This document shows, one piece after another, positions 2,472 through 5,592 of a stretch of DNA of 5,944 nucleotides. Source of the DNA: a virus. A program made the translations under genes and the position numbers. The notes under the pieces were generated by a model that saw nothing but the letters and a program-made list of their open reading frames with translations, made no database searches and was not told the origin of the DNA. The DNA lies in IMG/VR virus record IMGVR_UViG_3300045988_000211, positions 1 to 5,944 of that record; one strand, given 5' to 3'. Positions within the stretch are counted from its first letter, which is position 1, and every line of letters starts with the position of its first letter.

Positions 2472-3341
2472 ATGGGAGCATTATCAGGATTCTTAACAGC
2501 ACTAAACGTAGCGGGAAACGTGGCAAACACAATCGGAACTGTTGCGGGAGCAGCTAAAAACGTAGCCGGAGCGTTTGGCGGATGGGGACAGACAGGCAAT
2601 AGCCAAAGCAGCGGCGGCAGCACAAGCCAAGGCGGCGGGCACTCCGAAAGCGGAAGTCAAGCCGGCACAAACGTTCAACAGGTCAACGACTGGCTAAAAC
2701 AGGCATACGCGTACCAAGGGCAAGAAGCAGCCATGCAAGGTAAATACAACAGTCAAAGCATGCTTAAACAAATGGGTTACAACACCTTACAAGCAATCAT
2801 GCAAGGCGTATACAACCACATTGAAAACAGCGTAGCAATGAACTACAACAGCGCAGAAGCACTAGCTAACCGTGAATGGCAAGAACACATGTCAAGCACA
2901 GCATACCAACGAGCTGTTGAGGACATGAAAAAAGCGGGGCTTAACCCTATCTTAGCATTCTCAAACGGCGGCGCAAGCACACCGGGAGGAAGTGCGGGAA
3001 CAATCAGCGGAGCAAGCATGGGACTTGCAAGCAGCAGCGCACTAGGAGTAAGCAGAAGCGGAGGGTTTGTACCAAATGCATACTCAAGCTCAAGCTGGAG
3101 TAAAAGTGACTGGTACAACGCTGCACAAAGTTGGCAGCAGATGCTTAGTTCAACGCACATGACACCCTACGGGCTACAAAAAGCGCTTACAGAAGTCGGA
3201 AACGACACAAGCAAAGCAATCGAAGACGCAACATCGAAGACAGGAAAAGAGAAAGCTGCAGCACAAAACAGAAGCATAAAGCCACAAGACAAAAACGGAG
3301 CATACGGAGAAAAACGAAAGCCGGGTGATTACTTAAAGTGA
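2472..3341 (+). CDS. Minor capsid / DNA pilot protein VP2 (H-like), 289 aa
   Basis: The protein has a Gly/Ala/Ser-rich N-terminus. The conserved block TAYQRAVEDMKKAGLNPILAF is typical of gokushovirus VP2. It lies between VP1 and VP4, and its stop TGA overlaps the VP4 GTG start (GTGA). Confidence 0.85.
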   Translation: MGALSGFLTALNVAGNVANTIGTVAGAAKNVAGAFGGWGQTGNSQSSGGSTSQGGGHSESGSQAGTNVQQVNDWLKQAYAYQGQEAAMQGKYNSQSMLKQMGYNTLQAIMQGVYNHIENSVAMNYNSAEALANREWQEHMSSTAYQRAVEDMKKAGLNPILAFSNGGASTPGGSAGTISGASMGLASSSALGVSRSGGFVPNAYSSSSWSKSDWYNAAQSWQQMLSSTHMTPYGLQKALTEVGNDTSKAIEDATSKTGKEKAAAQNRSIKPQDKNGAYGEKRKPGDYLK

Positions 3342-4357
3342 GTTGCTACAAGCCATTAATAAGGCTGTACGACCCGAACAATAAGGACATAAGCGGGCGG
3401 GTGTATTCACTCGCCCGCTTTTCTGAAATAAGCGGGAAACAGCTAAAATATGAAGATTTGATGTACAGAAAAGATGTCATGTTGATACCATGCGGTCAAT
3501 GCATCGGATGTAGAATCAGACAAAGGGAAGACTGGGCAACACGAATAGAATTAGAAGCGCGAGACTATCCAAGAGAAGAAGTTTGGTTTATCACATTAAC
3601 TTATGACGATGACCATGTGCCGGGCATGATAGTAAACACAGGCGAAATCATGCGAAAAGTACAGTACGTCTGGAAACCGGGAGAGAAGCGCCCTGAAAGC
3701 GTCCAAACTTTGCTATATACTGACATTCAAAAGTTCTTAAAACGCCTCAGAAAGGCTTATAGGGGCAAATTACGCTATTTCGTAGCGGGAGAATACGGAG
3801 AACAGACGGCAAGACCACACTTCCATATGATTCTATATGGATGGAGACCAACAGACCTAGAGCACCTATACAAGATACAGCACAACGGATATTTCACAAG
3901 TAAATGGTTAGAAGACCTATGGGGCATGGGTCAAATACAGATAGCACAAGCAGTACCGGAAACATATAGATATGTTGCGGGATACGTTACAAAAAAAATG
4001 TACGAAATTGACGGTCAAAAGGCAAACGTATACTACGAACTAGGACAACAAAAACCTTTTGCATGTATGAGCCTAAAACCAGGCTTAGGAGATAACTATT
4101 ACAAAAAGCACAAAGCAGAAATCTGGAAACAAGGGTATATCCAATGCACAAACGGCAAACGCGCACAAATACCACGTTATTATGAAAAAATGATGGAAGC
4201 GGAAAACCCACAAAGGTTATGGAGAATTAAGCAGAACAGACAAGCAGCAGCCATAGAAGAAAACCGACTAAAGTACGAAAATGCAGACTTTGCAGAACAG
4301 TGCAAAACGAAAGAGAGAGTGATAAAGAAGCAGATGAAGAAGAGAGGGACACTTTAA
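3338..4357 (+). CDS. Replication initiator VP4 (A-like HUH rolling-circle endonuclease), 339 aa
   Basis: The N-terminus is M-SCYKPL. The protein carries a Cys cluster (CGQCIGC), motif 1 (FITLTYDD), the HUH motif (RPHFHMILYG), and a double-Tyr catalytic motif (YVAGYVTKK, compare phiX174 gpA YVAKYV). The GTG start is translationally coupled to the VP2 stop. Confidence 0.93.
   Translation: MSCYKPLIRLYDPNNKDISGRVYSLARFSEISGKQLKYEDLMYRKDVMLIPCGQCIGCRIRQREDWATRIELEARDYPREEVWFITLTYDDDHVPGMIVNTGEIMRKVQYVWKPGEKRPESVQTLLYTDIQKFLKRLRKAYRGKLRYFVAGEYGEQTARPHFHMILYGWRPTDLEHLYKIQHNGYFTSKWLEDLWGMGQIQIAQAVPETYRYVAGYVTKKMYEIDGQKANVYYELGQQKPFACMSLKPGLGDNYYKKHKAEIWKQGYIQCTNGKRAQIPRYYEKMMEAENPQRLWRIKQNRQAAAIEENRLKYENADFAEQCKTKERVIKKQMKKRGTL
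3391..3420 (+). promoter_or_regulatory. 13-bp-stem hairpin inside the 5' part of the Rep coding region
   Basis: AAGCGGGCGGGTG (3391..3403) pairs with CACTCGCCCGCTT (3408..3420), with 12 Watson-Crick pairs plus one G-T and a TATT loop. Two further T follow, giving TTTT at 3419..3422. Confidence 0.5.
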
Positions 4358-4375
4358 CAGTGTCACGGTGTCACC

Positions 4376-4409
4376 TAGCCCAGTACCTATCAAGTAAGGT
4401 ACTGGGCTA
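4376..4409 (+). terminator. Perfect 13-bp-stem hairpin 19 nt downstream of the Rep stop (terminator-like or origin-related)
   Basis: TAGCCCAGTACCT (4376..4388) pairs with AGGTACTGGGCTA (4397..4409) around the 8-nt loop ATCAAGTA. The downstream sequence TTGTCATTT is only moderately T-rich. Confidence 0.4.
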
Positions 4410-4432
4410 TTGTCATTTAAAGACTCCATGTA

Positions 4433-4450
4433 TCAGTCTATTCAGTCTAT
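4433..4450. repeat. Perfect tandem duplication of the 9-mer TCAGTCTAT
   Basis: 4433..4441 equals 4442..4450. Confidence 0.9.
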
Positions 4451-4468
4451 CAAATAGCTATCTCTTAT

Positions 4469-4512
4469 CGCGCGTGCGCACGCGCGCGAAGCGCGCACGC
4501 GCGCACGCGCGG
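4469..4512. repeat. Alternating CG / palindromic GC-rich tract
   Basis: A perfect 18-nt palindrome CGCGCGTGCGCACGCGCG lies at 4469..4486. GCGCACGC recurs at 4476, 4493 and 4501. The tract is almost pure alternating purine-pyrimidine, in an otherwise A-rich genome. Confidence 0.9.
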
Positions 4513-4525
4513 CTCTTCAGCGCTA

Positions 4526-4555
4526 TTGTTCGCAAGCTCACAAGCGCTGTATAAT
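4526..4555 (+). promoter_or_regulatory. Candidate sigma70-type promoter (TTGTTC-N18-TATAAT)
   Basis: A perfect -10 TATAAT at 4550..4555 is immediately preceded by TG. The -35 TTGTTC at 4526..4531 is weak (3/6) and the spacer is 18 nt. Confidence 0.3.
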
Positions 4556-4567
4556 ATATAACTTGTT

Positions 4568-4583
4568 GTAGTAGTAGTAGTAG
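4568..4583. repeat. (GTA)5 / (TAG)5 trinucleotide microsatellite
   Basis: The sequence is gtagtagtagtagtag, preceded by ttgttg. Confidence 0.9.
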
Positions 4584-4649
4584 AGACTGTGGAAAAGTTG
4601 ATAAGTGCTAAAATTTAACGTTAAGACGTAAATAAAAGGCAAAAAACAA

Positions 4650-4762
4650 TGTTGAAAGATTTGTTGAAAACTTGTTGAAATGTTGAAAGTTCGTCAAAAT
4701 GACGAAAACCTTTGTGCAACATTTTGTTGAAAACCTGTTGAAAGTGTTGAAAGTGTTGAAAA
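4650..4762 (+). repeat. Iteron array: eight direct TGTTGAAA copies in two clusters of four
   Basis: Copies start at 4650, 4662, 4673 and 4681, then at 4725, 4736, 4745 and 4754. The last three are head-to-tail 9-mers (TGTTGAAAG, TGTTGAAAG, TGTTGAAAA). All copies share one orientation. Confidence 0.9.
4690..4706. promoter_or_regulatory. 7-3-7 perfect inverted repeat TTCGTCA-AAA-TGACGAA at the centre of the iteron array (operator-like or hairpin)
   Basis: TTCGTCA (4690..4696) is the reverse complement of TGACGAA (4700..4706). Confidence 0.6.
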
Positions 4763-4895
4763 CGCGCACAGCGCTAAAAAGGAATGGATTCAGCCGAATT
4801 CCGCTGCGCTCCATACGGCAAGGCGCTAAAGCGCCGTTCAAAACAAAGGAGCAAAACTGAGTTACTGATATATCAATTAAAGTTTCAAAAAAGGC

Positions 4896-4924
4896 TTGAC
4901 TTTTTATCAAAAATATGATAGAAT
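4896..4924 (+). promoter_or_regulatory. Sigma70-type promoter with extended -10 (TTGACT-N17-TGaTAGAAT)
   Basis: The -35 TTGACT is at 4896..4901, the spacer is 17 nt, TG is at 4916..4917, and the -10 TAGAAT is at 4919..4924. An A-rich tract lies upstream. The SD and ATG of the next ORF follow within ~30 nt. Confidence 0.65.
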
Positions 4925-5139: not shown

Positions 5140-5173
5140 AAACTCCCGGTTGACAGCCGGGAGTTTTTGTTTT
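5140..5173 (+). terminator. Rho-independent terminator
   Basis: The 10-bp stem AAACTCCCGG (5140..5149) pairs with CCGGGAGTTT (5157..5166) around the 7-nt loop TTGACAG. A T-rich tail TTGTTTT follows through 5173. It starts 6 nt after the stop of the 60-aa ORF. Confidence 0.75.
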
Positions 5174-5178
5174 ATAAT
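5150..5178 (+). promoter_or_regulatory. Perfect consensus sigma70 promoter TTGACA-N17-TATAAT nested in the terminator
   Basis: TTGACA at 5150..5155 lies in the terminator loop. The spacer 5156..5172 is exactly 17 nt, and TATAAT is at 5173..5178. The SD AAAGGGGGG and ATG 5200 of the peptidase gene lie just downstream. Confidence 0.65.
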
Positions 5179-5199
5179 AAAGACAAAGGGGGGCTAAAC

Positions 5200-5592
5200 A
5201 TGATTAAAAGCTATATCATGGACACAGATGGAAACGTAAAGCTGGCAAGACACTTCAAAGTAAAAGAATTTGCTTGCAAAGACGGCAGCCAAGTAGTATT
5301 CATAGATGACTACCTATACACCATTCTAGATATCTTACGACATAAGCTAGGAAAGCCGGTGATCATCACCAGCGGATACAGAACACCAGAGTGGAACAAA
5401 AAATGCAACGGAGCAAAATACAGCTACCACATGCGCGGTATGGCAGCAGATATCCGAGTCAATGGCATGAGCGCAAAAGAGCTTGCCAACAAACTGAATG
5501 AAATCGTCCCGGATGAATGCGGCATTATCGTATACAACAATTGGGTGCACTTTGATGTGCGACCCGGAAAAAAATACAGAAAGGGGATGTAA
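5200..5592 (+). CDS. Peptidase M15 family (M15A / Peptidase_M15_3-like) zinc cell-wall hydrolase, 130 aa
   Basis: The motif series FxVKEFACKDG ... ITSGYRTPEWNxxxxGAxxSYHMRGMAADI ... WVHFDVR matches the H/D/H zinc-ligand pattern of D-Ala-D-Ala carboxypeptidase-fold phage endolysins. ATG 5200 lies 5 nt after AAAGGGGGG (5186..5194). The ORF-track start at 5167 is a TTG inside the terminator tail. Confidence 0.85.
   Translation: MIKSYIMDTDGNVKLARHFKVKEFACKDGSQVVFIDDYLYTILDILRHKLGKPVIITSGYRTPEWNKKCNGAKYSYHMRGMAADIRVNGMSAKELANKLNEIVPDECGIIVYNNWVHFDVRPGKKYRKGM

Follow-up and report, generated by a model that had tools for sequence, protein, structure and literature searches.

The virus record IMGVR_UViG_3300045988_000211 (IMG/VR; 5,944 nt, hereafter "the window", meaning this whole stretch of DNA) is a complete gokushovirus-like microvirus genome that encodes VP1 to VP5 and a peptidase. 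Here we describe an array of eight identical repeats in this genome and the putative origin-unwinding module to which it belongs. The array is intergenic: it lies between the end, at 4357, of the gene for the replication initiator VP4/Rep (3338..4357, plus strand; Pfam REP_ORF2-G2P, 3e-18; PHROG 942, 1e-109) and the next plausible gene, which starts at about 4953. Eight exact copies of TGTTGAAA begin on the plus strand at 4650, 4662, 4673 and 4681 (first cluster, 4650..4688) and at 4725, 4736, 4745 and 4754 (second cluster, 4725..4761), with spacings of 12, 11 and 8, then 44, then 11, 9 and 9 nt. The octamer occurs nowhere else in the window, where 0.42 copies would be expected by chance, and none of 200 shuffles reached eight copies. 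An earlier, sequence-only reading of this DNA had already reported the eight copies with their common orientation and spacings, the intergenic setting in a microvirus, a perfect palindrome between the two clusters (TTCGTCA-AAA-TGACGAA, 4690..4706) and a promoter at 4896..4924. These observations all hold, the last in the form of a promoter-like site that a consensus scan places 135 nt downstream of the array.

Anatomy of the array and of the sequence upstream

The array is in fact larger than that reading had noted, with two more degenerate boxes at 4588-4604, and these belong to an ordered core that lies about 50 nt upstream of the eight repeats. From left to right, this core comprises an A/T-only tract, TATAATATATAA (4550..4561), which is a candidate duplex-unwinding element; the microvirus-specific motif ACTTGTTG (4561..4568, plus strand); five consecutive 5'-TAG-3' triplets, that is, putative 3'-GAT-5' DnaA-trios (4569..4583, plus strand); a 4-nt spacer, AGAC (4584..4587), which reads GGGAG, GGGGG or GGCAA in relatives; and, proximal to the trios, a tandem pair of putative DnaA boxes on the plus strand (4588..4604), TGTGGAAAA (4588-4596) and AGTTGATAA (4596-4604). 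The reverse complements of this pair are TTTTCCACA and TTATCAACT, one and two mismatches away from TTATCCACA. At the trio-proximal position relatives carry TGTTGAAA, TGTGGAAA or AGTGGAAA and host chromosomal origins (oriCs) carry TGTTGAAAcTGTTGAAA or TGTGGAAA; as second tandem box, relatives have TGTTGAAATGTTGAAA.

Bacterial origins are opened at a basal unwinding system (BUS), where ATP-DnaA binds the boxes, assembles along the trio strand and parts the duplex. A BUS is recognised by a DnaA box with no more than two mismatches to TTATCCACA or to the box of the species, by three or more trios (3'-NAN-5', preferably 3'-GAT-5') within 16 bp of that box, and by tandem boxes; in its commonest arrangement there is a second tandem box with at most four mismatches. 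The spacers average about 4 bp and are described as a 'GC-rich region' (PMC8287927). The consensus DnaA-trio is 3'-GAT-5' (PMC10201434; PMC8287927). In the window, the box at 4588-4596, TGTGGAAAA, is the reverse complement of TTTTCCACA and has a single mismatch; (TAG)5 at 4569-4583 stands 4 nt from it; AGTTGATAA at 4596-4604 provides the second box; the proximal box has the orientation of a BUS, and the A/T tract (4550-4561) forms an AT-rich region beyond the trios. The combination of trios and box was found in none of 200 shuffles of the window. In B. subtilis, the trio-proximal boxes have a fixed orientation; distal DnaA boxes, in contrast, can point either way and work from 132-462 bp off, with helical phasing, raising the supply of DnaA to the proximal boxes (PMC6669920). 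The TAG trios, the tandem box pair and the A/T tract, all missed in the sequence-only reading, identify the array as part of a predicted DnaA unwinding module of the oriC type, in which the eight repeats would, by analogy, correspond to the distal DnaA-box subregion of oriC.

The palindrome had been seen as the central dyad of an origin, symmetrically flanked by the two clusters. Its distance to the left cluster is 1 nt and to the right cluster 18 nt, and the dyad is not conserved across lineages. The 7-3-7 structure is real and caps an imperfect hairpin of greater length (4678-4727), which has z = -5.6 in the window and the box at 4681-4688 in its stem; this hairpin is strong only in the sublineage of the window, other lineages having a weak one or none, and compensatory changes are not seen. 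The palindrome arms are kept, with a flipped loop (TTT), in a distant clade (L003; L numbers are our handles for contigs and loci), and other lineages lack them. The arms, TTCGTCA/TGACGAA, fit the '0A box' of Spo0A, TGNCGAA. Spo0A boxes were also considered as the identity of the repeats themselves, and rejected: the CG of TGNCGAA is missing from TGTTGAAA, and TGTTGAAA and TGTGGAAA can replace each other. Coding repeats were rejected as well, since few relatives (5 of 72 and 13 of 50) keep the open reading frames (ORFs) that run over the array intact.

The repeat at bacterial origins and on other elements

TGTTGAAA(A), or TGTTGAAAA, is the reverse complement of TTTTCAACA, which departs at a single position from the relaxed DnaA-box consensus TTWTNCACA. 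Relatives show TGTGGAAA, TGTGGATA and TGTTGAAA replacing one another at homologous positions, and the canonical TGTGGAAAA, even the perfect TGTGGATAA, can stand in for TGTTGAAA; the box at 4725 is replaced by TGTGGAAAACC. A scan for triple TGTTGAAA across the genomes of 185,579 species gave at least 120 matches, the counts being samples and the taxonomy of metagenome-assembled genomes (MAGs) being that labelled in the records. About 43 of the 120 matches listed are MAGs of Oscillospiraceae, Ruminococcaceae or unclassified Clostridia, as counted from record titles. At 10 of the 120 loci listed, dense clusters in both orientations flank a dnaA-type gene and fill the spacer before dnaN; the flanked genes encode Bac_DnaA and Bac_DnaA_C domains (E 1e-63 to 1e-69). 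In fact, TGTTGAAA is the commonest 8-mer in nine of nine dnaA-dnaN spacers from Oscillospiraceae, Ruminococcus and Clostridia (5-23 copies each), which makes it the principal repeat at the origins of these bacteria. The canonical TGTGGAAA is outnumbered in these spacers, as it is in the phage. Thus, the eight repeats of the window are most likely host-type DnaA boxes, predicted to be bound by DnaA.

The likeness extends to the unwinding core. Five host spacers end with two tandem boxes, typically TTTCAACAgTTTCAACA, a 4-5-nt and mostly C-rich spacer, (CTA)4-5 and an AT-rich stretch; in two of them (L190 and L134) the tandem pair includes the canonical TTTCCACA. Read on the other strand, this is AT-rich-(TAG)n-GGGGG-TGTTGAAAcTGTTGAAAact, with n = 4-5, and the plus strand of the window, TATAATATATAA-CTTGTTG-(TAG)5-AGAC-TGTGGAAAA-GTTGATAAG, has the order and orientation of all five dnaA-dnaN spacers. 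One microvirus relative (L078) reads tagtagtag-ggggg-TGTTGAAATGTTGAAAact, nearly identical to the host sequence.

The DnaA proteins encoded beside these oriCs differ from the familiar ones in their DNA-reading motif, which is RDHSTIVY(A/S) or RDHSTMTT, against RDHTTV(I/L)HA in B. subtilis and E. coli (dnaA genes of L129, L134, L144, L177, L190 and L223; also L160, L162 and L240). The altered positions are those of E. coli T435 and H439, which contact DNA bases in the 1J1V structure. The changed motif fits an altered box preference and suggests that the initiator and its box have co-evolved; a non-canonical DnaA box, TTTTCAACA, would thus come paired with changes in the motif that reads it. Away from oriC, a triplet, TGTTGAAAactcTGTTGAAAgTGTTGAAAact (spacing 12, 9), recurs in many Oscillospiraceae intergenic regions (L165, L202, L236, L199, L154/L207/L224 and others), and these triplets may be candidate dispersed DnaA-box clusters.

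The search of other genomes that the sequence-only reading proposed for the repeat gave matches in other microviruses and in bacterial chromosomes, and no plasmid match was found in PLSDB. The boxes also occur on mobile elements that are not microviruses. A 39-kb IMG/VR contig of this kind (L071, 1709-2000) carries a full BUS, with a long A/T tract, TAGTAGTAG, GGGC and a box pair, and besides it nine further TGTTGAAA boxes. Other contigs, several of them plasmid- or phage-like, carry box arrays without obvious trios (L060/L117, L074, L111/L182). BUS-like modules with the canonical TGTGGATAA and no adjacent dnaA are found on IMG/VR contigs of 28-162 kb (L242/L253/L271, L252, L278, L261 and L268); one of them (L252) reads (TAG)6-GGGG-TGTGGATAAGTTGATAAGTGC, closely like 4569-4608 of the window. 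When we scanned for (TAG)3 together with TGTGGATAA, 41 contigs were returned, and the sole microvirus among them (L275) had a chance-like single box; within Microviridae, the module appears tied to the host group with boxes of the TGTTGAAA type. BUS-like TGTTGAAA sites were also seen in Mesoaciditoga/Athalassotoga (Thermotogota) and in an Anaerolineae MAG (L155 2311-2890, L196 2128-2707 and L163 767-1346). The likely hosts of the phage are gut Oscillospiraceae/Ruminococcus, because of the box type and of the gut or rumen source of its relatives.

Spread, conservation and modularity

A scan of IMG/VR for three closely spaced TGTTGAAA returned at least 120 contigs, and 81 of those listed carry a VP1 homologue; together with the window they make up a set of 82 carriers. 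Related genomes conserve the repeat layout, the loss of which would, in the sequence-only reading, have spoken against a function: the module, about 220 nt long, is present in at least 81 IMG/VR microvirus contigs and in 45 GenBank gokushoviruses from human, pig, monkey, dog, mink and raccoon faeces, where it is almost always unannotated. Each carrier contig has 3-12 copies of TGTTGAAA, nearly all on one strand. The arrangement of trios and box is found in 73 of the 82 array-bearing genomes, and all 73 have at least 11 A/T-only positions beyond the trios; 47 unique relatives have nothing but A/T (100%) at the 11 positions that precede ACTTGTTG. An AT-rich stretch occupies the equivalent position in host oriCs. 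ACTTGTTG itself is at least 90% conserved across all 73 BUS-bearing microvirus contigs, which suggests a phage-specific step coupled to opening.

Conservation is concentrated on this non-coding DNA. The stretch from about 4545 to 4765 is better conserved than the genes, and within it, among 23 close relatives, conservation reaches 97.5% in box columns and 85.7% in the other columns. In fact, the boxes remain unchanged while identity drops to 37% for VP4 and to 40% for VP1; among carriers, identity to the VP4 of the window ranges from 37 to 94%. Several GenBank gokushoviruses match the window only at about 4545-4765 and others only from 4762 onwards, and megablast matches to distant genomes begin or end at about 4545 and at 4761-4765; the module therefore has recombination boundaries. 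It lies on the gene-sense strand in 57 contigs and antisense in 16 (L118 4996-5182; L036 2658-2839; L083, L100, L109 and others), and the antisense clade has it between VP2 and VP4 instead of downstream of VP4. One of these genomes (L118) has a VP4 94% identical to that of the window, and yet its module is inverted in place. The module thus behaves as a recombination cassette that can face either way and can lie before or after the Rep gene. As single-stranded DNA, 4540-4770 has an unremarkable fold (z = -1.5). These observations (either orientation, either flank of VP4, no unusual single-strand structure and a hairpin that is not maintained) point to action on the double-stranded replicative form. 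Its anatomy, its identity with host oriCs, its conservation and modularity, and its independence of phage proteins, were all established by computation.

The edges of the module have features of their own. A GC-rich alternating purine/pyrimidine palindrome at the left edge (4469..4511) forms a very stable hairpin in single-stranded DNA, and the region that holds it (4358-4545) folds with z = -6.6; this hairpin could be a candidate complementary-strand or Rep-recognition hairpin. Its motif ACGCGCAC recurs at the right edge (4760-4769), and inverted copies of ACGCGCAC at both edges could explain the in-place inversion seen in L118. Further left, a terminator-like 13-bp hairpin follows VP4 (4376-4409), and TCAGTCTAT stands twice in tandem at 4433-4450. 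On the other side, a conserved non-coding stretch (4762-4860) starts exactly at the module boundary and is common to genomes without any other nearby match (for example MT121961 and KX513876); 4758-4900 is unstructured (fold z = -0.2). The remaining genes are VP5 (133-372), VP3 (305-757), VP1 (760-2433), VP2 (2472-3341) and an M15 peptidase (5167-5592), just upstream of which a hairpin (5140-5166) shares sequence with a sigma-70 promoter (5150-5178) that matches perfectly, at 12/12. An exact-match look-up of the VP1 protein gave no record, and an Rfam E-value scan of the whole window gave three weak matches, none of them inside the array region.

Function of the module and known systems

What binds the boxes? 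The binder is much more probably a host factor than a protein of the phage, because the box is constant across VP4 and VP1, small ORFs are rare, the ORFs over the array are not conserved and unrelated elements share the boxes. The sequence-only reading was right to see an origin-like protein-binding array; its analogy with the double-strand origins of rolling-circle plasmids and of CRESS-DNA (circular, Rep-encoding, single-stranded DNA) viruses finds no support in these data, and neither do the binders it named, VP4 and two proteins of 60 and 40 aa. Taking the repeats as VP4 iterons of a rolling-circle double-strand origin would account for a module that always adjoins VP4, for direct repeats and a dyad that resemble plasmid and CRESS origins, and for the presence in ACTTGTTG of AACTTG, as in the phiX174 origin, CAACTTG^ATATT. 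We nevertheless consider it very improbable: the identical 8-mer dominates host oriCs and occurs on unrelated elements, and the specificity of iterons for their Rep would predict a co-variation that is not seen across VP4 proteins 37-94% identical, the 8-mer being unchanged even in carriers whose VP4 is only 37-44% identical. Nor is there a conserved stem-loop for a nick site, since neither the dyad (4690-4706) nor the hairpin (4678-4727) is conserved, and in the 16 contigs with an inverted module a viral-strand nick site would fall on the wrong strand. The least probable explanation of all is an operator for a small accessory protein (the 63-aa ORF, the 44-aa ORF or VP5). Small ORFs do lie just downstream of the array, and VP5 belongs to a PHROG family annotated 'DNA binding protein', but only 10 of 81 carriers have the 63-aa ORF, none has the 44-aa ORF at full length (a 1-nt indel shifts its frame in relatives) and the repeats also occur on host chromosomes without these proteins.

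If DnaA is the binder, it need not open DNA. The boxes could act as a sink or sensor that binds DnaA without origin firing, multicopy replicative forms titrating it as datA does, and such titration could block host initiation or couple phage development to the DnaA-ATP status of the host. Each genome brings ten boxes, every further replicative-form copy adds ten more, and two tailed-phage contigs (L111/L182) carry arrays without trios; still, we regard this explanation, in either variant, as unlikely, because titration requires boxes alone, and yet 73 of 82 carriers keep the trios, the short spacer, the orientation of the proximal box and the A/T-only tract. All of these features are specifically needed for unwinding (PMC8287927; PMC6669920). 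Somewhat more doubtful is a DnaA-controlled promoter, at which box-bound DnaA would regulate the transcription of Rep or of genes downstream. A -10-like TATAAT lies within the A/T tract (4550-4555), the A/T end of the module faces the VP4 start in the inverted clade, and there is the promoter-like site at 4896-4924; against this, the consensus scan calls no promoter at 4550, where the -35 is poor, and the module takes both orientations and varied positions relative to genes. To our knowledge, trios have no role in transcription. Promoter and sink alike leave the conserved trios, the spacer and the fixed orientation of the proximal box unexplained. Finally, the array might be an 'A site' for DnaA-dependent single-strand initiation (ABC primosome), a boxed hairpin on the viral strand priming the complementary strand. 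The box at 4681-4688 does lie in the stem of the hairpin at 4678-4727 (z = -5.6), and some relatives have inverted pairs, TGTGGAAAA...TTTTCCACA. We give this even less credit than VP4 iterons, for the hairpin, which should be conserved, is absent in most lineages, the module lies on either strand, and stronger candidate hairpins exist upstream (4376-4409 and 4469-4511).

To explain these results we propose that the TGTTGAAA array, the two further boxes, the five trios and the A/T tract are probably a phage-borne copy or mimic of the BUS of host origins, a module for opening DNA that depends on host DnaA. DnaA binding, unwinding and all later steps we infer from the sequence. Host DnaA would load densely on the two four-box clusters of the double-stranded replicative form, which would play the part of the distal DnaA-box subregion, and would then be passed on to the trio-proximal box pair and nucleate there. 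From this pair, DnaA would oligomerise along the strand of the TAG trios, and the adjacent A/T tract and ACTTGTTG would melt. The opened DNA could then start phage synthesis, either through loading of the replicative helicase and primase of the host (for theta-type synthesis or that of the complementary strand) or through exposure of single-stranded DNA to the HUH initiator. The module lies in a microvirus genome and no viral locus carries dnaA; we envision that it works like the core of an oriC without being a chromosomal oriC, which sits beside dnaA/dnaN and fires once per cell cycle.

Several points weigh against this proposal. Microviruses already encode a rolling-circle initiator, and we know of no role in this family for a second, DnaA-dependent initiation system. 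The ten boxes show a helical phasing (R = 0.76 at 10.5 bp) that is only suggestive, with p ~0.08 under a null that constrains the spacing, and the A/T tract, with its 12 nt in the window and up to about 35 nt in some relatives, is short. ACTTGTTG is missing from the host oriC BUSs and from the 39-kb phage contig L071. Even in the hosts, binding of TTTTCAACA by DnaA is read from position and architecture, and the occurrence of the TGTTGAAA box in Thermotogota and Anaerolineae means that the box alone is no proof of host.

How opening by DnaA would be combined with the phage's own initiator is a more tentative matter. It is possible, though we would not expect it, that this is a hybrid origin in which DnaA, and not supercoiling or a hairpin, opens the duplex, either as a mini-chromosome replicating in theta mode or by a melting that presents ACTTGTTG to VP4. 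If the theta version is true, plasmid-like persistence tied to the host cell cycle could follow; if ACTTGTTG is presented to VP4, it is the complement of the mRNA-sense strand that would be packaged in clades whose module is inverted.

In textbooks, Microviridae exemplify rolling-circle replication that does not depend on DnaA. DnaA boxes beside plasmid or phage origins are well known, and no earlier case is known to us of a complete chromosomal-type unwinding module in a single-stranded DNA rolling-circle phage. A full-text search of open-access literature found nothing that joins gokushovirus with DnaA or Microviridae with 'DnaA box', the open-access papers on DnaA-trios that mention phages describe no such microvirus module, and searching the literature by the repeat sequences returned only unrelated papers. 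If our proposal is true, a large and widespread gut clade uses the chromosomal initiator of its host, which would be a new point of host dependence, of host range and possibly of persistence. It would also offer a sequence-based host prediction (Oscillospiraceae/Ruminococcus) for an uncultured gokushovirus group, and a compact, natural 220-bp substrate for studies of origin unwinding in these bacteria. Given that BUS-like modules occur on larger phage contigs too, origin mimicry may be a general strategy of mobile elements.

Among known systems, the origins of CRESS-DNA viruses and rolling-circle plasmids likewise have direct repeats near a dyad and an HUH Rep gene, but the repeats described here do not co-vary with Rep and are common to host chromosomes; unlike in CRESS origins, moreover, the dyad is not conserved and its loop holds no sequence of the nonanucleotide type. 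The origin of phiX174 is a 30-bp sequence inside gene A, CAACTTG^ATATTAATAAC, and phiX174 replicates without DnaA. The window belongs to the same virus family, has a homologous initiator and carries AACTTG (4560-4565) beside an A/T-rich stretch; its site is intergenic, however, the rest of the 30-mer has no match, and the motif inverts with the module in 16 contigs. A phiX-like nick site at AACTTG is speculation; if it served the viral strand, the inverted clade would have to package the opposite strand. The datA-type loci are DnaA-box clusters that titrate DnaA and have neither trios nor an unwinding element; the phage module shares with them a dense cluster of DnaA boxes of one type outside oriC and differs in having both trios and an unwinding element.

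Closer relations are found among origins helped by DnaA. In P1 oriR, F, pSC101, R6K and RK2, mobile-element origins are assisted by DnaA boxes beside the element's own origin, and here too a mobile element is predicted to recruit host DnaA through boxes. Those origins are opened by their own Rep-bound iterons, whereas the phage module has no evident phage-specific iterons and carries the full chromosomal unwinding grammar; we know of no description of these plasmid origins with DnaA-trios in BUS geometry. The BUS of bacterial oriC, in B. subtilis that of incC, reportedly consists of DnaA-boxes 6/7, a GC spacer, DnaA-trios and an AT-rich region (Richardson 2016/2019; Pelliciari 2021). The phage module has the same parts in the host order and orientation, namely a box pair, a 4-nt spacer, five 3'-GAT-5' trios and an A/T tract, and its further box clusters, 50-170 bp away, are like the distal incC subregion. 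What sets it apart is its place, on a 5.9-kb single-stranded DNA phage genome beside an HUH Rep gene and not beside dnaA, together with the extra, invariant ACTTGTTG, a short A/T tract and the form of an invertible recombination cassette.

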